Assembly: GCA_964623545.1 (NCBI GenBank) | Contig: CAZUTR010000002.1 | Span: forward strand, 1-29,868 | Reading direction: 5' to 3' | Source of the DNA: an uncultured Pirellulales bacterium | GTDB lineage: Bacteria; Planctomycetota; Phycisphaerae; Sedimentisphaerales; Anaerobacaceae | DNA: 29,868 nt | In this document: positions 6,826 to 28,475 of the stretch, in pieces | How positions within the stretch are numbered: position 1 is the stretch's first letter | Layout: each line of letters starts with the position of its first letter | Translations under genes and position numbers: made by a program | The notes under the pieces: generated by a model | What the model was told of the DNA's origin: nothing | Database searches by the model: none | Seen by the model: the letters and a program-made list of their open reading frames with translations, nothing else

Positions 6826-7560
6826 ATGAATCATCAGGAGTTTGAGAAAGCGAACAAAGAAAAAATTGCAGAAATGCAGAAGAGTGAGAGGGTCAAGAGT
6901 TTGACAAGAGACTGGTTTGTTCATGTGTCAAAGCATGAGTATTCTTACCATTTCACTTGGCTCGGTCGTCCTATTATTCAATTTCCCCAGGATATTGTTG
7001 CCATGCAGGAAATAATCTGGCAGACAAGACCCGATTTAATTATCGAAACAGGGATTGCCCGCGGAGGTTCTCTAATCTTTTATGCTTCTATGCTTGAGCT
7101 GCTCGGTGGCAGTGGCCAGGTTCTGGGCATTGACGTAGACATTCGGCAACATAACCGACTGGAAATTGAAAAGCATCCTATGTTTAAGAGAATTACGATG
7201 ATTCAAGGTTCATCGGTTGACCGATTTGTTGTTCAGCAAGTTTATGATTTTGCAAAAGGGGAAAAACGCATTCTGGTAGTTTTAGATTCTAATCATACCT
7301 ATGAGCATGTGTTAAAAGAACTACAACTGTATTCTCCTTTGGTGGATGAGGGTAGTTATCTTGTTGTTTTTGATACAGTTATTGAAGATATGCCGGAGGA
7401 TTCCTTTCCTGACCGTCCCTGGGGAAAGGGAAATAATCCCAAAACAGCAGTTCGGGAATTCTTGAAAACAAATGATCGCTTTGAGATTGATAAAGAAATT
7501 GAAAATAAACTGCTTATAACTGTAGCTCCGGATGGTTTCCTGAAATGCGTAAGGAATTAG
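6826..7560 (+). CDS. CmcI / cephalosporin-hydroxylase-family protein, likely SAM-dependent sugar O-methyltransferase (Rv2959c-like)
   Basis: YSYHFTWLGRPIIQFPQD, PDLIIETGIARGGSL, VVLDSNHT, PDRPWGKGNNP, ITVAPDGFL are characteristic of the family. ATG 6826 or GTG 6820. Confidence 0.85.
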   Translation: MNHQEFEKANKEKIAEMQKSERVKSLTRDWFVHVSKHEYSYHFTWLGRPIIQFPQDIVAMQEIIWQTRPDLIIETGIARGGSLIFYASMLELLGGSGQVLGIDVDIRQHNRLEIEKHPMFKRITMIQGSSVDRFVVQQVYDFAKGEKRILVVLDSNHTYEHVLKELQLYSPLVDEGSYLVVFDTVIEDMPEDSFPDRPWGKGNNPKTAVREFLKTNDRFEIDKEIENKLLITVAPDGFLKCVRN

Positions 7561-8684
7561 TCGCAGAACGTATCCCTGTATCGGGCCCTTGGATTACTCA
7601 GAAAGAGATTGATTACGTAACCGATGCAGCAACAAACGCCTGGTATGGTGAAGCCAACGTATACAACGAGCGTTTCGAAAAGGCGTTTGCAGAATACGTA
7701 CGTGTACGCTTTGCTATTTCCCTGCCCTCTTGTACTTCTGCTATCCATTTATCTCTTTTGTCTCTTGGCGTTGGTCCCGGTGATGAGGTTATTGTTCCTG
7801 ATATAACCTGGATTGCCACTTCAGCTCCAATTACTTATGTTGGAGCAACTACTGTTTTTGCCGATATTGATCAAGACACCTGGTGCTTATCAGCGGAGTC
7901 GTTTGAGCAGTGCGTAACACCACGGACCAAAGCTGTTATTCCGGTAGATCTCTATGGTGGGATGCCAGCTATGGATAGTATTTGTGAAATTGCTCAGCGG
8001 CATGGAATTGCTGTAATAGAAGACGCTGCTGAAGCTATCGGTTCTGAATATAAGGGTCAGAGAGCCGGCAGTTTTGGAGATACGGGAGTGTTTAGTTTCC
8101 ATGGTTCCAAGACCCTGACCACCGGTGAAGGTGGGATGTTGGTGACCGATAGCGAATATTTGCGCAATCGAGCGCTTGTTCTCCGCGATCATGGGCGTCC
8201 TCCTGGCGACACGATGTTCTGCAATACGGACGTCGCCTTCAAATACAAGATGAGCAGCATGCAGGCGGCGTTGGGCACGGGCCAGATTGAACGAATTGAG
8301 GAATTGATTGACCGAAAACGACGGATTTTTTCCTGGTATAAAGAAAGACTGAAAGATGTCGAGGCGGTTACGCTGAATTACGAGGCCGAGGATGTGAAAA
8401 ATACTTATTGGATGGTGTCGGTTATCATCGATAAGAAACTGGGATTGAAAAAGGAACAATTGATGAAATTGCTTGCGGAGAAAAACATAGAAAGCCGCCC
8501 GTTTTTCCGGCCTTTGAGTTCCATTCCCGCCTACAAGGGTTGTGAGCAGGCTGAGCTTGCAAGGAGCCGCAATCATGTAAGCTACAGTATTGCTCCTTTT
8601 GGAGTGAATCTTCCCAGCGGATTGAACTTGGATGAAGAAAAGGTTGAATATGTTTGCGACGTCTTGCGTGACCTGCTCTGCTGA
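7545..8684 (+). CDS. DegT/DnrJ/EryC1/StrS PLP-dependent sugar aminotransferase (perosamine-synthase-like)
   Basis: SCTSAIHL, GDEVIVP, IEDAAEAIG, SFHGSKTLTTGEGGM (PLP lysine), GVNLPS. Confidence 0.93.
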   Translation: MRKELVAERIPVSGPWITQKEIDYVTDAATNAWYGEANVYNERFEKAFAEYVRVRFAISLPSCTSAIHLSLLSLGVGPGDEVIVPDITWIATSAPITYVGATTVFADIDQDTWCLSAESFEQCVTPRTKAVIPVDLYGGMPAMDSICEIAQRHGIAVIEDAAEAIGSEYKGQRAGSFGDTGVFSFHGSKTLTTGEGGMLVTDSEYLRNRALVLRDHGRPPGDTMFCNTDVAFKYKMSSMQAALGTGQIERIEELIDRKRRIFSWYKERLKDVEAVTLNYEAEDVKNTYWMVSVIIDKKLGLKKEQLMKLLAEKNIESRPFFRPLSSIPAYKGCEQAELARSRNHVSYSIAPFGVNLPSGLNLDEEKVEYVCDVLRDLLC

Positions 8685-8713
8685 ATCTCCATCTATGCAC
8701 GTAACCAAATCTA

Positions 8714-8978
8714 AAAAACAGGTCGCTGTAACTTGAGATACATTGTACACCCAAGCATGGCAGTCGGCTAAGTGTAGCGGAGATAGAACCCAGCATATTC
8801 ACCAGAAATTGTTTGTATCGACGAATACCAGATATCGAAACATTGCAACAAGAAGTAGAAGCATGGAACCGTAAACAAAATGCAAATCAGAAAACAGTGG
8901 ATTGACAATTTACAAACGAAGAAGTAAGAGTGAAGTCGAAAAGATTATATCCACAAATTCAAATGTTATTAGGTACTA
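8714..8978 (+). mobile_element. Decayed IS630-family element: 3' end of transposase plus right end
   Basis: Frame from 8732 reads LEIHCTPKHGSRLSVAEIEPSIFTRNCLYRRIPDIETLQQEVEAWNRKQNANQKTVD*QFTNEEVRVKSKRLYP. This matches the IS630 C-terminal consensus as recalled (HYTPKHGSWLN.AEIE...W.FT...AR.KLKRLYP). TGA at 8903-8905 replaces a Trp. Ends in GTACTAG (8973-8979); IS630 elements target TA/CTAG. Confidence 0.82.
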
Positions 8979-10462
8979 GCCTGAAGCTCAATACCTTGGC
9001 CAACTTTGCGGGCAGGGCCTGGACTACACTGCTGGCCTTTCTTTTCATTCCCATTTACATCAAAGTGCTGGGGATTGAATCGTGGGGATTGATTGGTTTC
9101 TTCACGACGCTCCTGGCAGTGCTCAACCTGCTCGATCTGGGGCTTAGCTCGACGCTGAACCGTGAACTGGCGCGTCTCTCGGCGGAACAGGATAAGGGGC
9201 GCGAGCAACGCGACCTGGTGCGCACACTCGAGATGATCTATTGGGTCGTTGCAATGTTGCTCGGTCTGCTTGTGCTGGCGGCTGCCCCTGTTATCGCTCG
9301 CTACTGGATAAACTCTCAGGAACTACCCGTTGGAACCGTTACCTCCGCTGTTCGCATGATGGCGCTGGTCTTCATTTTACGATTCCCAGTCGCTTTATAC
9401 CAAGGCGGCCTGATGGGATTGCAGCGACAGGTTCTTTTGAATGGGATTCTGGGCGGAATGGGCACATTACGAAGCGTGGGTGCCGTCGCCGTTTTATGGT
9501 GGATTTCGCCGACAATTCAGGCCTTTTTTATCTGGCAATTACTTGTCAGCGCCTTTCAGACCCTTGCGCTCAGGTCGTACCTTTGGAGGCTGTTGCCCCA
9601 CGATACAGTTCGACCGCGGTTTCAAAAGGAGTCTCTCTTGGGAGTCTGGCGTTTCGCCACCGGTATGGCCGGAATCGCGCTGGTTACGGTCTTTCTGACG
9701 AACCTGGATAAAGTGCTTCTCAGCAAGTTACTGACCCTGGAGAGATACGGTTACTACATGGTGGGCGCCTCGGCGGCAGGCGGCATCTATATTTTGGTAG
9801 CACCGTTTTATATCGCAGCATTCCCACGGTTTTCGCAAATGGTGGCGGCGGGAGAGCATGAGCAGGTTGCGAGACTTTACCACTTGCTGTGCCAAAGCGT
9901 TGCCGTTGTGGTTCTGCCGGTTGTCGCCGTTGTCTCAGTGTTTTCGCCCGAGGCGCTGATGATATGGACGAGGAATCCGGCGATAGTTGAAAACTCCCAC
10001 TTATTTGTTTCCCTGCTGGTTATTGGAACCGGGCTGAACGGCCTAATGAATATTCCATACGCTCTTCAGTTGGCTAGCGGATGGACGAAACTCGCTTTCT
10101 ATCAGAACGTTGTCTCGGTTAGCGTTGCTGTTCCCGCTCTTATTATCTTAACACGATTATACGGCGGCGTTGGCGCGGCCGTTATCTGGGTTGTGCTGAA
10201 TGCGTCATGGGTGCTGATTACTCCCCATATTATGCATCGCCGGTTATTTACAACGGAAAAGTGGCGATGGTATTTTGGAGATGTGGCAAAGCCCTTATTG
10301 GGGGTTGTTGTTGCAGCGGGCGTTGTTCGATTGCTCGTTCCTTTTGAGATGCTTGGTCTCTGGACGCAGTTTCTTATCTTGGGTACAACATGGGCCTTGG
10401 CCGTAGTGATGGCAGTTTCCCTTACGCCGAGCCTTCGGGGAGTATTATTCAAAAGCGCTTAA
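8963..10462 (+). CDS. wzx: Wzx O-unit flippase (MOP superfamily)
   Basis: Many TM segments; SLKLNTLANFAGRAW...IPIYIKVLGIESWGLIG, LDLGLSSTLNRE, NLDKVLLSKLL. Start uncertain (ATG 8963 or GTG 8930, both in IS-derived sequence). Confidence 0.9.
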   Translation: MLLGTSLKLNTLANFAGRAWTTLLAFLFIPIYIKVLGIESWGLIGFFTTLLAVLNLLDLGLSSTLNRELARLSAEQDKGREQRDLVRTLEMIYWVVAMLLGLLVLAAAPVIARYWINSQELPVGTVTSAVRMMALVFILRFPVALYQGGLMGLQRQVLLNGILGGMGTLRSVGAVAVLWWISPTIQAFFIWQLLVSAFQTLALRSYLWRLLPHDTVRPRFQKESLLGVWRFATGMAGIALVTVFLTNLDKVLLSKLLTLERYGYYMVGASAAGGIYILVAPFYIAAFPRFSQMVAAGEHEQVARLYHLLCQSVAVVVLPVVAVVSVFSPEALMIWTRNPAIVENSHLFVSLLVIGTGLNGLMNIPYALQLASGWTKLAFYQNVVSVSVAVPALIILTRLYGGVGAAVIWVVLNASWVLITPHIMHRRLFTTEKWRWYFGDVAKPLLGVVVAAGVVRLLVPFEMLGLWTQFLILGTTWALAVVMAVSLTPSLRGVLFKSA

Positions 10463-10646
10463 TTCATATACTCGACAGTCATGAGTTTACATCAGTCTGC
10501 TTTCTTGTTAGGGCCTTTGTTATTACGTGCTGTTTGCTTCTGTCGAATTAATTTCGTTATCCACCATGAAACCGGAACTTTGGCGACATAATTATTGATT
10601 ATTACGGTCGGCAGGTTTTGCTATTGAAGGTTAAAATTGTAAGAAC

Positions 10647-11861
10647 ATGGTCAAGTTTACAATAATTATCCCAACACGAGAACGCTGCGATACTCTGGAG
10701 AGTTCTCTTCAGACGTGTGTGAGGCAGGAGTATGACAATTTAGAGATTATCGTAAGTGATAATGACAGTGGGGATAACACTCGTGACGTGGTGGAGTCGT
10801 TTAGAGATAATCGGGTCAAATACGTGAATACGGGTGAAAGGCTCAGTATGTCGGCCAATTGGGAATTTGCACTGTCACAGGTTGACAGTGGCTACATTAT
10901 TTATCTTGGAGATGATGACGGCATGCTGCCTGAGGCTATCATAAGTTTGAATCGGATTATTGAGGACACGGGGACCGAGGCGGTCGGATGGCGGTCAGCT
11001 GAATACCATTGGCCCAGACATCCAGACAAAGCCGTGCGAAACATGCTCAATATACCTCTCGGGACATCTTTGGAAAAACGCGATTCCAAAGAAATGCTGA
11101 CTGATGTGATTAATATGAAGCGTTCTTACCGTGAGCTTCCTTTTTTGTATAAGGGGGCGGTGAGTTACGAACCCGTTAAGCGAATATCACTTGAATCAGG
11201 GCGTTTTTTTAACTCTTTAACTCCTGATGTATATTCGGGGATTGTTCTGGCAAGTGTCATCGACTCCTATTACTATTCCCAGAGTCCTTATTCAATTAAT
11301 GGAGCCTCTCATCACAGCGTCGGTACATCAGGTTTCAGCGTGGGTTCTGACAAGAAAGCGCTAAATAAATACCTGAGCGAAGACAATATTCCGTTTCACC
11401 CCAAGTTGGTTATGGTGCCGTCAGTGCCGATTTTGGTGGCTGAATGCATTTTGCAGGCGCATGAGCATGTTGCGGAGTCGCGGCAGTTTGCGGTTGACAT
11501 TAAACATGTAATGGAGACTGTGGCCAGGCAGACGGTGAATTTACGAGGCGAGCAGTATGAGGCTGTTATAGGTGCGATAAAAGAGATAGCGAGACTTAAC
11601 AATCTTGAAGGATGCTTATCAGAAATTATTGTGCCGCGCAGGCAGCGCTGTGACCAAGCTGTCAGGTCCATACCCGGGATCAATCCGCTCAGGAAAACTC
11701 TTCTGGTGGATTGTTCGCAATTCGGTGCATCCAATGTGTTCGAAGCCAGTTTACTTTGCAGACACCTGCTGGCCTTAAGAGGGATGAATTATTTTTCCTT
11801 GAGAGGCATTGCGAAAACGACGATTGGTTTGCTCAAAAGAGAGTTTATAAAGAGGTCGTAG
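10647..11861 (+). CDS. GT2 family glycosyltransferase with C-terminal extension
   Basis: FTIIIPTRER, IIVSDNDSGD, NWEFAL, YLGDDDG (DxD). Confidence 0.88.
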   Translation: MVKFTIIIPTRERCDTLESSLQTCVRQEYDNLEIIVSDNDSGDNTRDVVESFRDNRVKYVNTGERLSMSANWEFALSQVDSGYIIYLGDDDGMLPEAIISLNRIIEDTGTEAVGWRSAEYHWPRHPDKAVRNMLNIPLGTSLEKRDSKEMLTDVINMKRSYRELPFLYKGAVSYEPVKRISLESGRFFNSLTPDVYSGIVLASVIDSYYYSQSPYSINGASHHSVGTSGFSVGSDKKALNKYLSEDNIPFHPKLVMVPSVPILVAECILQAHEHVAESRQFAVDIKHVMETVARQTVNLRGEQYEAVIGAIKEIARLNNLEGCLSEIIVPRRQRCDQAVRSIPGINPLRKTLLVDCSQFGASNVFEASLLCRHLLALRGMNYFSLRGIAKTTIGLLKREFIKRS

Positions 11862-12763: not shown

Positions 12764-14209
12764 ATGATAAGGTTTGACCATTGGTCATTTTACTGGATAT
12801 TCTTTGTTGTTTTATTCTCATCGGCCGCTATTTTTAGACCCCGCATGTTCGCGCTGATATTGCCTTTGGTTTTTTTCTGGACGGCAAGAGCATTCTTTCT
12901 CATTGACTGGAGCGTTCTAAAATTAGTGCTTTTTCTGTTTCTAATCTCTATTGCTCTCAATGGTTTTCCCCGCCAGATTTCTTCATTACCGAATCGTAAG
13001 GCTTTAATCGTCTTTATTTTGCTTTTTGGGGCATGGTCCGTTTACGCAGCATTTCACGTTCCCGAGTCTGCACTAATAGGGGTTGTGCGTTCCGCTGTAC
13101 ATCGTCCTCCGCTAAGGGGTATAGTAAGAACCTTTTACTTTATGTCTTTTATTTTGGCCCTGCCCATTGCTTTTTGGGGAATACATGGGAAGGCGGATTT
13201 TTCAAAGGTTCTACGCATATTTTTTATAACGGCTTTGGTCGCAGCCATTGTCGGAGTAGTCGAGATGTTTGCCGTTAGATTTGTGCCCTCCCTTGACAAT
13301 CTTTGGCGTTTTTTCAATGTAGGCAATGTCGTTGAAATAGTTGGGGAGAAAAAAACGTTTACCAGTTGTAGGCCCTGCCCGTTCGTTTATGAACCTCGAT
13401 ATTTTGGATATGCTATGGGATTTACAGCCTGCCTGGCTTTTCTTTGTAGAATCTTCCCTGTTTCCGGTGTTCCAAAATGGGCTACCCGCATTCCTTTCAT
13501 AGGTACCTGTTTCCTTTTATCGCTCGCAAGCGCATCTGTCTCTGCAGTGGCCGGTGTCTTGTTTGGTTTTACTGCGATTACGGTTTGGCTTGTAGCTTGC
13601 AAAAGGATTGTTCAAAAACATAAGCTTAAGTACGTATTTTTCTTTATAATCCTGGTTTTAATTTTTTTGTTGAATACTCAATTATTACAGCATCGTTTAT
13701 ACGGTTATTTATTCAGTGCTGGACTGGCGGACGAATCCGGGCTAACCAAAAATGCATTTGAAAGTCAGCGGGGCATGCTCTCAACTAATGCATATCTATA
13801 TTGGTTTATCAACCAGCCTAAATATCTGTTAATTGGCTCAGGGTTCGGAAACGGCTGCTTTTATTGCTTCAAATTTCTTCCTTACTTTAGCGGCTGGCTG
13901 GAAGCAGGATTTTTGACTGCAAGGTTGCCAATCATTGACTTGATATCAGATATCGGAATCCTGGGGATGTTATTCTTGTTCGGTTTATGGATAAGGTGGT
14001 GGAGAAAAATAGGCACATTAAGCAAGCAGACCGAAGACGTCGAGAGTATGCATTGCCTGGAAATTATTTGTGGAATACTCCTTTTTTTAATCATAAGCGG
14101 ATTCTGGTTTGAAACGCATGTCTTGACATGGTTCTTTTTTGGAGTGGCACTTGCATTGACAGCAGCAAACAATCCAGAGGCCGACTATGATGACAACAAT
14201 CTTGGCTGA
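12764..14209 (+). CDS. wzy: Wzy O-unit polymerase (polytopic membrane protein)
   Basis: About 10-12 hydrophobic segments, periplasmic loops (PFVYEPRYFG; GSGFGN...IIDLISDIGILG typical of Wzy_C), low GC, position among the GTs. A ligase-type function is not excluded. Confidence 0.72.
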   Translation: MIRFDHWSFYWIFFVVLFSSAAIFRPRMFALILPLVFFWTARAFFLIDWSVLKLVLFLFLISIALNGFPRQISSLPNRKALIVFILLFGAWSVYAAFHVPESALIGVVRSAVHRPPLRGIVRTFYFMSFILALPIAFWGIHGKADFSKVLRIFFITALVAAIVGVVEMFAVRFVPSLDNLWRFFNVGNVVEIVGEKKTFTSCRPCPFVYEPRYFGYAMGFTACLAFLCRIFPVSGVPKWATRIPFIGTCFLLSLASASVSAVAGVLFGFTAITVWLVACKRIVQKHKLKYVFFFIILVLIFLLNTQLLQHRLYGYLFSAGLADESGLTKNAFESQRGMLSTNAYLYWFINQPKYLLIGSGFGNGCFYCFKFLPYFSGWLEAGFLTARLPIIDLISDIGILGMLFLFGLWIRWWRKIGTLSKQTEDVESMHCLEIICGILLFLIISGFWFETHVLTWFFFGVALALTAANNPEADYDDNNLG

Positions 14210-26996: not shown

Positions 26997-28475
26997 ATGA
27001 AAAAATCTCTATTTGTACTATTGCTTGTTTCAATGCCGTTTTTATGTTCCGCTTCTGTGTCAACTAATGTTCCGCTTGACCACTGGAGCTATGATGCTGT
27101 TGACAAGCTTATCGGCTTGGGACTTGTCGAAGGTGGTATGTTGAGTACAAAACCGGTTACGCGCCTGGAGATGGCTAGACTTATTGCGGAGGCAATGGAT
27201 AAAGTCCGGGAACGCAATGAAACGAATGAAATAATTTTAGCTGTAATTGATAGATTGAAAAAGGAATTCAACGCAGAGTTAATCAACGCGGGTTTTATGG
27301 ATGGAGCTCCTGCCACGAGTTTTATAAAGCCGATTGAAGACCCATATTTAAGCTTTGTTTATGCAGATAAAGGACCTGAATTGGAAAACCAACGCGGAGA
27401 TATTTTTGATGAGGACTCCAATTTCAGGTCTGGATTTGCTTCACGAGCGAAGTTGTTTGATAACTATGTCTTTTATATTCATCCGGAGTACACCGATACA
27501 CCAACAGACCCGGATAATATTGACTTAGTTGAAGTATACGGCAAGATTAGGATTAGAGAACTGGAAATTGAGGTGGGTCAGGACTCACTCTGGTGGGGGC
27601 CCGGCTATTATGGCGGATTAATTATGACTAACAATGCCGAGCCGTTCAAAATGGTCAAGGTGTCCTGTCCAAATCCAGTAAAACTCCCCTGGTTATTACG
27701 TTACTTAGGCCCTTTTAAGTCAGTCTGGTTTTTGGCAGAACTGGAGGAGGACAGGACTATTCCAGAAGCTAAACTGACCGGCGTAAGATTCAATTTCAAG
27801 CCTCATCCGGCTTGTGAGTTAGGTGTTTCAAGGACCATAATGTTCGGTGGTCGGGGAGGGCCTCACGTTGGTTTTTCGGATTATGTTGATATGTGGCGGC
27901 CACAGGCCGAGCAATTGGAGAATAATCAATTAGCCGGCATCGATGGTTCTCTTCTTATAATGCTCAAAGGCAGAATGCCGGCAAAATCGGTCAAGGTTTA
28001 TACTGAGCTTATCGGAGAAGACGAAGCGCACTATATGCCTGGCAAATGGGGAAGGTTATTCGGTGTGCAGCTCAATGATATCTTCCGAACGGGCAGAACC
28101 GATTTCCGTTTTGAGTATGCAAGCAACCACATTAAGGATTATCCGGATATTTTTTATACCGATAATATTTACAAATCAGGTTACAGATACTATGGAAGAA
28201 TAATCGGCCATCATATGGGTACCGACACCCGTGATATGTTTTTTAGAATTACTCACTATTTGTCGGAGAACCTGATTCTGGGCCTTGAATATGACAACAG
28301 AATAGACGGCCTGTCTGTAAACAGAGGAAGCCAAACCACGGAAAGATATGGTTGTGACCTTACATTTTTCTCATCCAGTAACTGGCAGCTTAAAACCGAA
28401 TATCGTTACCAAGACGCAGAAGGGACAGCAGGAGATAACCATATTTTTCAGCTTAAGCTGGTTTATGATTTTTGA
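26997..28475 (+). CDS. wzi: Capsule assembly protein Wzi family (outer-membrane beta-barrel)
   Basis: Signal peptide; GQDSLWWGPG, NNAEP, ENNQLAGID, IGEDEA, IIGHHMGTD; terminal Phe. Confidence 0.85.
   Translation: MKKSLFVLLLVSMPFLCSASVSTNVPLDHWSYDAVDKLIGLGLVEGGMLSTKPVTRLEMARLIAEAMDKVRERNETNEIILAVIDRLKKEFNAELINAGFMDGAPATSFIKPIEDPYLSFVYADKGPELENQRGDIFDEDSNFRSGFASRAKLFDNYVFYIHPEYTDTPTDPDNIDLVEVYGKIRIRELEIEVGQDSLWWGPGYYGGLIMTNNAEPFKMVKVSCPNPVKLPWLLRYLGPFKSVWFLAELEEDRTIPEAKLTGVRFNFKPHPACELGVSRTIMFGGRGGPHVGFSDYVDMWRPQAEQLENNQLAGIDGSLLIMLKGRMPAKSVKVYTELIGEDEAHYMPGKWGRLFGVQLNDIFRTGRTDFRFEYASNHIKDYPDIFYTDNIYKSGYRYYGRIIGHHMGTDTRDMFFRITHYLSENLILGLEYDNRIDGLSVNRGSQTTERYGCDLTFFSSSNWQLKTEYRYQDAEGTAGDNHIFQLKLVYDF

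Follow-up and report, generated by a model that had tools for sequence, protein, structure and literature searches.

How does a gene begin when an insertion sequence (IS) stands where its start codon should be? We pursued this question for wzx, the gene of a putative lipid-linked repeat-unit flippase, on a contig from an uncultured Pirellulales bacterium (CAZUTR010000002.1, GenBank assembly GCA_964623545.1), the whole of which (29,868 nt) is the window analyzed here. Immediately upstream of the conserved part of wzx lies the 3'-terminal remnant of an IS630-family element, and the transposase frame of this remnant, having lost its stop codon, continues into the flippase. The explanation that we favor, and consider probable on the sequence comparisons presented here, is that an IS630 element inserted near the 5' end of wzx, that its left side was later lost, and that loss of the transposase stop then allowed wzx to be translated from an IS-derived start. 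The original prediction for this stretch, made by a model from the letters alone, had likewise placed an IS630 remnant carrying the only upstream starts in the 5' end of wzx. That part stood, whereas the empty site that it reconstructed found no support.

An IS630 right end adjoins wzx, and the native wzx start is lost

When the window was searched with nhmmer and a DNA profile of 19 full-length copies, positions 8731 to 8978 aligned without gaps to profile positions 982 to 1229 (E = 1.4e-63); the profile had no further match in the rest of the window, and no left inverted repeat was found anywhere in it. In tblastn searches, the 74-amino-acid (aa) translation matched annotated IS630-family transposases on plasmids with up to 62% identity (E = 1e-25), and the IS630 likeness originally predicted is thus confirmed. 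Scans of genomes and metagenomes yielded closer copies, at 69% in an Anaerohalosphaeraceae metagenome-assembled genome and at 72 to 76% in many sediment metagenomes, so that the remnant shares only 72 to 76% protein identity with the closest copies found. Full-length relatives carry an HTH_32 and a DDE_3 open reading frame (ORF) and pass the NCBIfam model transpos_IS630 (NF033545); the joined protein of one of them scored 206 bits against a cutoff of 100. The remnant, which is only the last fifth of such an element, scored 16 bits on its own (E = 0.0055; profile positions 253 to 296 of 299), below the cutoff, as expected for 74 aa. It belongs to a transposase of the IS630/DDE_3 type and encodes the family C terminus ...HTPKHGSWLN...RRIPD...VDWxFT...KLKRLYPxI; other members of the family are ISMae29 of Microcystis and an IS630 transposase on plasmid pPSE7367.01 of Pseudanabaena sp. 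PCC 7367.

The 19 complete relatives measure 1,227 to 1,229 nt from TA to TA, lie mostly inside CTAG, and have the ends TA/GTACCTCATAACATTTGATTTTAG ... CAAATTCAAATGTTATGAGGTAC/TA (slashes here mark the edges of the element and of its target). Like other family members, the remnant ends in the family inverted repeat abutting TA (TA/G, 8977 to 8979). This terminus, GGTAC/TA/G, is letter-identical in 39 of 70 relatives, and the last 22 nt of the right inverted repeat (~8948 to 8976) are one base off the consensus; the remainder consists of the last ~80 transposase codons. Those members have a TA on either side; the remnant, in contrast, lacks the left end, the catalytic domain, and the left of the two TA copies, which has been deleted. 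The absence of the left repeat from the window is consistent with truncation. With only element positions 982 to 1227 left, the remnant is a dead fragment that is unable to transpose. It had been described as decayed, and it does carry one nonsense change and one stop loss, but it has no frameshift and is in fact barely decayed. The limits first given for it, 8714 to 8978, were accurate at the right junction, which is the family terminus, but not on the left, where IS homology begins sharply at 8731 and the bases from 8714 to 8730 resemble no part of the IS. The sediment-metagenome loci examined (L023 to L102) reveal a well-populated IS630 subgroup of this length, with two ORFs and mostly in CTAG.

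Six homologues are 77 to 85% identical to the flippase in protein, and the loci of five of them were compared with the window. In all five, wzx begins CA TTG (AGC/AGA/GCA) (AGC/AAC/AGT) CTG AAA CTN AAC, that is, the start codon is a TTG, two codons ahead of L-K-L-N. The same aminotransferase gene precedes wzx in three of the five (L003, L004, and L020, with L004 sharing the whole sugar cassette); in these three, a GGGGAAG or GGGGGAG ribosome-binding site lies ~9 nt before the TTG, and the aminotransferase stop is 0 to 14 nt from it. More widely, exactly three residues (M-x-x) precede the [LIV][KR]xN motif in 75 of the 102 homologues that have this motif.

By blastn, the window is homologous to these loci up to 8677 and again from 8978 onward, with ~39 nt between the two points in the relatives and 300 nt in the window. 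Since homology resumes at 8978 and the native TTG lies two codons before L-K, the insertion falls between wzx codons 2 and 3; A8978 doubles as the last base of the target TA and the first base of codon 3 (AGC). The window lacks IS positions 1 to 981, and of the native sequence it lacks the end of the aminotransferase gene (its last few codons), the GGGGA ribosome-binding site, and the first two wzx codons, TTG included. In place of this native sequence stands a 53-nt filler.

We propose that an IS630-family element of 1.23 kb entered wzx at a TA located between codons 2 and 3. The ancestral site would probably have read ...CCA TTG AG/TA/GC CTG AAG, one synonymous change from the sequence of L020; an ancestor with TTG AGT AGC CTG would have had the TA target, and relatives of the IS are also found at GAG/TA/G. 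A later rearrangement would then have removed IS positions 1 to 981 together with ~39 nt of left flank, comprising the aminotransferase tail, the ribosome-binding site, the TTG start, and codon 2, and would have left the filler behind. With the stop in the right inverted repeat changed to TTA, a frame would now be open from an IS-derived codon into wzx.

A lost transposase stop opens the frame into the flippase

As originally predicted, the transposase frame enters wzx in phase. Beginning at 8696, it reads ...LEIHCTPKHGSRLSVAEIE...KTVD-stop-QFTNEEVRVKSKRLYPQIQMLLGT/SLKLNTLANF (also written ...LEIHCTPKHGSRLSVAEIEPSIFTRNCLYRRIPDIETLQQEVEAWNRKQNANQKTVD-stop-QFTNEEVRVKSKRLYPQIQMLLGT/SLKLNTLANF), with TGA 8903 to 8905 as its single internal stop. 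The transposase of the relatives ends ...YPQIQML-stop, the stop, 8 nt short of the IS tip, being part of the right inverted repeat. In the window this codon is TTA, which differs from the majority TGA by one G>T change at 8967, a point absent from the earlier prediction. Because transposase and wzx share one reading frame and the stop is lost, the frame is open from GTG 8930 or ATG 8963 through M-L-L-G-T to S-L-K-L-N-T. This sets the remnant apart from other IS630 family members: it has a nonsense change, and the loss of its stop carries the frame into a host gene.

GTG 8930 and ATG 8963 are the only ATG, GTG, or TTG codons between the internal TGA and the junction. The claim that they are the only starts after the TGA thus applies upstream of the junction but not beyond it, where TTG 8996 lies in frame inside native wzx. 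The public gene call begins wzx at ATG 8963 (P0001, 499 aa, beginning MLLGTSLKLN). The N-terminal peptides expected from IS-derived starts would be MLLGTSLK... or KSKRLYPQIQMLLGTSLK..., and KSKRLYPQ would likewise be IS derived. Had the stop been retained, an in-frame start would next be available at TTG 8996, at the cost of the conserved motif. The wzx gene is most likely still translated, with its start at ATG 8963 or GTG 8930, and we infer that the stop loss was selected for restoring a flippase with the conserved N-terminal motif.

Translation could instead begin at a codon of native sequence, either TTG 8996 or a noncanonical one such as CTG 8981, rather than within the IS. An in-frame TTG does exist, and the orthologues themselves use TTG; however, initiation at 8996 would leave out the family-conserved S-LKLNT motif, no ribosome-binding site precedes it, and the stop loss at 8966 to 8968 would become pure coincidence. 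We regard a native-codon start as very unlikely.

A further-reaching claim, which we put forward only tentatively, is that of exaptation: a flippase gene cut from its start by IS630 would have been rescued by a point mutation of the transposase stop, not by excision, so that the last codons of a dead transposase now serve as its start and N terminus. If this is true, the locus is a documented case of an IS end turned into a translation start. If translation from the IS-derived codons were shown, it would follow that host genes can acquire start codons from the 3' end of a transposase gene that stops within a few bases of the tip of its element.

The flippase gene is intact beyond the junction

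The flippase reached 48 bits on PF13440 (cutoff of 23; residues 47 to 343) and gave a weak MatE match, which marks it as a MOP-domain protein; on the NCBIfam MOP flippase model, it scored 41 bits, below the 273-bit cutoff of that model. Among 1,617 homologues found, the named ones are oligosaccharide flippases or O-antigen/teichoic acid export proteins. The gene is part of its locus, being on the same strand as genes for a Wza-like SLBB protein, Wzz, sugar-nucleotide synthesis, glycosyltransferases, and Wzi. Besides wzx, no gene of the window, which also encodes Wza, Wzz, and Wzi, specifies a second MOP flippase.

Several observations weigh against the favored explanation. No convincing ribosome-binding site precedes GTG 8930, where the upstream sequence is purine rich but has no clear site, or ATG 8963. 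Neither a promoter-like nor a terminator-like site was detected between 8500 and 9100, the lack of a promoter being the relevant point here, and none of the RNA runs contained the stretch. One other IS copy (L049/L062) also has TTA at this place, but the only effect there is to lengthen a dead transposase by 13 codons, without fusion to a host gene, so the change need not be adaptive. Compared with the five orthologues, wzx contains one G more, at 10455 near its 3' end (AAAAGCGCTT versus AAAACGCTT), which shifts the frame to a stop at 10460 to 10462, removes the last 9 to 11 residues, and could be early decay. DNA homology to the orthologues ends shortly afterward, at 10469, so that with breaks at both gene ends, both ends of wzx are rearrangement junctions. 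The pairwise dN/dS of wzx, which had been proposed as a check on the original prediction, was 0.12 to 0.16 against the five orthologues and thus no higher than among the orthologues themselves (0.12 to 0.20), but these values are averaged over a long branch (dS of 0.65 to 0.88) and say little about constraint since the insertion. Strain single-nucleotide polymorphisms in wzx, which came from a 93%-alike relative, were too few for a test of constraint. Finally, no source of the filler was found: it showed no similarity above shuffled controls to the IS (both strands), the orthologous junctions, the fetched loci, the rest of the window, or plasmids.

On some of these grounds, wzx could be untranslated or dying, with the in-frame IS codons accidental and the capsule pathway either off or using another flippase. 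The loss of the native ribosome-binding site and start, the lack of such a site before the IS-derived starts, the trimmed tail, and the rearranged gene ends all suit this possibility. Yet 494 codons are intact, dN/dS is as low as in the relatives, both haplotypes found at this locus (described below) keep the arrangement, and wzx is the only flippase gene in an otherwise complete-looking locus. Moreover, loss of Wzx while the initiating transferase is active is usually harmful, which also counts against a dying gene. We consider this alternative unlikely.

The remnant might also be a recombination joint, in which case the wzx module would have arrived from elsewhere with the IS fragment already joined to it. 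The G+C content of wzx (~54% at 9000 to 10000) exceeds that of neighboring genes (~40 to 45%) and would fit an import; the IS remnant itself has ~36 to 40%. The 3' end of wzx is a junction as well. Homology to the orthologous loci gives way after 10469 to a 184-nt AT-rich gap, and the N-terminal domain of the GT2 encoded downstream (10647 to 11861) shares only 25% identity with that of the GT2 whose gene overlaps wzx in the orthologous loci. The different GT2 and the end of homology at 10469 make this end of wzx a module junction in a mosaic locus. At the 5' end, however, the adjacency of aminotransferase and wzx is kept in L003, L004, and L020 with similar divergence (79% versus 81 to 85% amino acid identity), and on the right the IS ends cleanly at a TA within wzx, the structure expected of transposition. 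A recombination joint therefore seems quite unlikely, and insertion followed by left-side loss and stop loss continues to be the reading that we prefer.

The filler and the proposed empty site

A different insertion site had been proposed at first, in which wzx began at ATG 8695 (MHVTKSSLKLNT...), the IS entered the TA of TCTA/G (8712 to 8713) at about codon 6 or 7, and an internal deletion left 8714 to 8978; the uninterrupted junction would read ATGCACGTAACCAAATCTAGCCTGAAG. The arithmetic of this join is correct, since 8695 to 8713 followed by 8979 onward gives ATG CAC GTA ACC AAA TCT AGC CTG AAG, an in-frame sequence that restores CTAG and whose ATG lies 10 nt past the aminotransferase stop. 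The distance from the last shared aminotransferase bases to AGC would then be 34 nt, against 38 nt in the orthologues, and P0002 and P0005 likewise have S-S before L-K.

The removal of 8714 to 8978 is nevertheless not supported as a reconstruction of the empty site. In addition to the IS homology that begins only at 8731, the left repeat (GTACCTCATAACATTTG) is missing after the TA at 8712 to 8713, as the original prediction had itself cautioned, so that the internal deletion must be supposed to have started with the very first base of the IS. The left flank (8695 to 8713) lies within the filler and is unlike the five orthologous junctions, although these are well conserved from one locus to the next. 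An insertion at codon 6 or 7 is likewise at odds with the TTG start of all five orthologues, and seven residues before L-K would be atypical of a family in which M-x-x is the prevailing spacing. Neither an empty allele, which had been suggested as a check, nor one with the full IS was seen in the contigs of nine salt-marsh sequencing runs. In a second haplotype of the filler, ACG stands for the ATG and TTCA for TCTA; this removes the sole positive evidence for the proposed site, although by itself it does not refute a decayed, formerly coding stretch. Four TA dinucleotides occur in the filler, two of which are part of a CTA, and the odds that one of them would join in frame behind an upstream ATG by coincidence are moderate. 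The reconstructed empty site is probably such a coincidence, and we hold an insertion there to be highly improbable.

Alleles were sought in the nine runs as Logan contigs, at a coverage of only 2 to 6x, at which rare alleles would be missed. Independent contigs cover the junctions: X5 matches 8547 to 8724 at 100%, X1 spans 8721 to 9412, and X9 and X4, which carry the variant haplotype, together span 8616 to 8843. Alternative joints or informative loose ends at 8677 or 8978 were absent from the contigs of these runs. Other IS630 relatives in the salt-marsh community are only ~85% alike, and look-ups of the exact proteins of neighboring genes returned only short contigs that end before the junction.

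The second haplotype was found in two runs (X9 contig, 8616 to 8766; X4 contig, 8693 to 8843) and differs from the window by eight substitutions, seven of which are transitions: T8696C, C8700T, G8701A, A8703C, C8711T, T8712C, A8714G, and C8724T. All eight fall within 29 nt (8696 to 8724), with identical flanks of 80 nt on the left (8616 to 8695) and 119 nt on the right (8725 to 8843). Since the runs differ from the window elsewhere by ~0.2 to 0.4%, the patch exceeds background diversity by >50-fold. Most simply, one might guess that a donor sequence beyond the window gave rise to the patch through a short conversion tract, and the patch may mark an unrecognized local diversifying or conversion process. 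RNA structure in the filler was not significant relative to shuffled sequences in either haplotype (z of -0.57 and +0.33).

Possible origins of the filler were examined and rejected. One was that it is a decayed piece of the IS stretch immediately preceding the breakpoint (NLNTH...EPKEARRLAER), but in local alignments to both strands of the 19 full copies it scored 24, against a shuffle mean of 22, with 22% of shuffles as good. Against the 130 nt just upstream of the IS breakpoint, it scored 23 versus 22.7, and ungapped identity at offsets of -15 to +15 was at most ~37%. A fold-back junction was suggested by the filler 10-mer GAATCTCCAT, the reverse complement of the breakpoint M/L-E-I-H codons in some relatives, but the match has an E value of ~9 and is no evidence.

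Comparison with known IS scars

IS remnants and IS-disrupted genes are familiar in O-antigen and capsule clusters, examples being IS5 in wbbL of Escherichia coli K-12 and the IS1016-bexA partial deletion in the cap locus of Haemophilus influenzae type b. As in those cases, a mobile-element scar lies here at a gene boundary of a polysaccharide locus and the adjacent 5' gene end is deleted. In contrast to them, where the struck gene is inactivated or truncated, the reading frame here continues without a stop from IS-derived codons into a flippase gene that is otherwise intact. ISAba1, ISEcp1, IS1, and IS10 activate neighboring genes through outward or hybrid promoters. The present remnant resembles them in that IS sequence would provide expression signals for a downstream host gene, but what it would provide is a start codon and N-terminal codons, gained through stop loss, and no promoter was detected. 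We found no directly comparable case in the literature, and nothing on IS630 together with wzx.

The general significance is modest, since IS scars are common in capsule and O-antigen loci and the understanding of these systems is unchanged. What appears less usual is that a stop loss in an IS end may give an IS-derived start and N terminus to an otherwise intact flippase. The locus offers a base-by-base example of a polysaccharide locus outlasting a mobile-element strike, and it cautions annotators that the called start of such a gene may be foreign.

Locus setting

The window, a contig that comes from salt-marsh sediment metagenomes, carries a Wzx/Wzy-type polysaccharide (capsule or exopolysaccharide) locus whose genes lie on one strand. 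The last gene of its sugar-nucleotide cassette encodes the DegT aminotransferase and is followed by wzx, glycosyltransferase genes, and the gene for Wzi (Table 1).

Table 1. Positions of the features discussed, numbered along the window
Feature	Position	Strand	Remarks
Wza-like SLBB protein	3-773	same strand as locus	
Wzz	794-1822	same strand as locus	
DegT/DnrJ/EryC1 aminotransferase	7545..8684	+	Pfam PF01041, E 1e-110, profile positions 3-359 of 360
Filler, 53 nt	8678..8730	.	hypervariable between haplotypes; replaces ~39 nt of native junction
IS630-family 3'-terminal remnant, 246 nt	8731..8976	+	element positions 982-1227 of ~1227; nhmmer
Nonsense change TGG>TGA in transposase frame	8903..8905	+	relatives: TGG (Trp in VDWQFT)
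IS-derived in-frame GTG	8930..8932	+	longest possible wzx start; 17 residues before LK motif
IS-derived in-frame ATG	8963..8965	+	Met of the transposase's native C terminus ...QIQML; same ATG in relatives
Lost transposase stop, TTA	8966..8968	+	relatives: stop in 62/70 (TGA 54, TAA 5, TAG 3)
TA target dinucleotide at right IS end	8977..8978	.	relatives carry TA on both flanks
Native wzx (MOP flippase), codon 3 to stop	8978..10462	+	494 intact codons; Pfam PF13440; 80-85% amino acid identity to P0002-P0006
First in-frame start-type codon (TTG) in native wzx	8996..8998	+	use would delete conserved SLKLNT motif
Wzi	26997-28475	same strand as locus	

An ORF at 12764 to 14209 (481 aa) had no Pfam match at E 0.001. 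The aminotransferase is 79% identical in amino acid sequence to that of L004, in an alignment that runs through ...DLL. The blastn similarity of its gene to the orthologues, which ends at 8677, reaches residue 378 of 379, and the filler supplies the final codon and the stop (TGA 8682 to 8684), the Pfam domain still being complete. At 8453 and 8477 in the same gene, runs X1 to X4 all read A where the window has G; these are strain differences.

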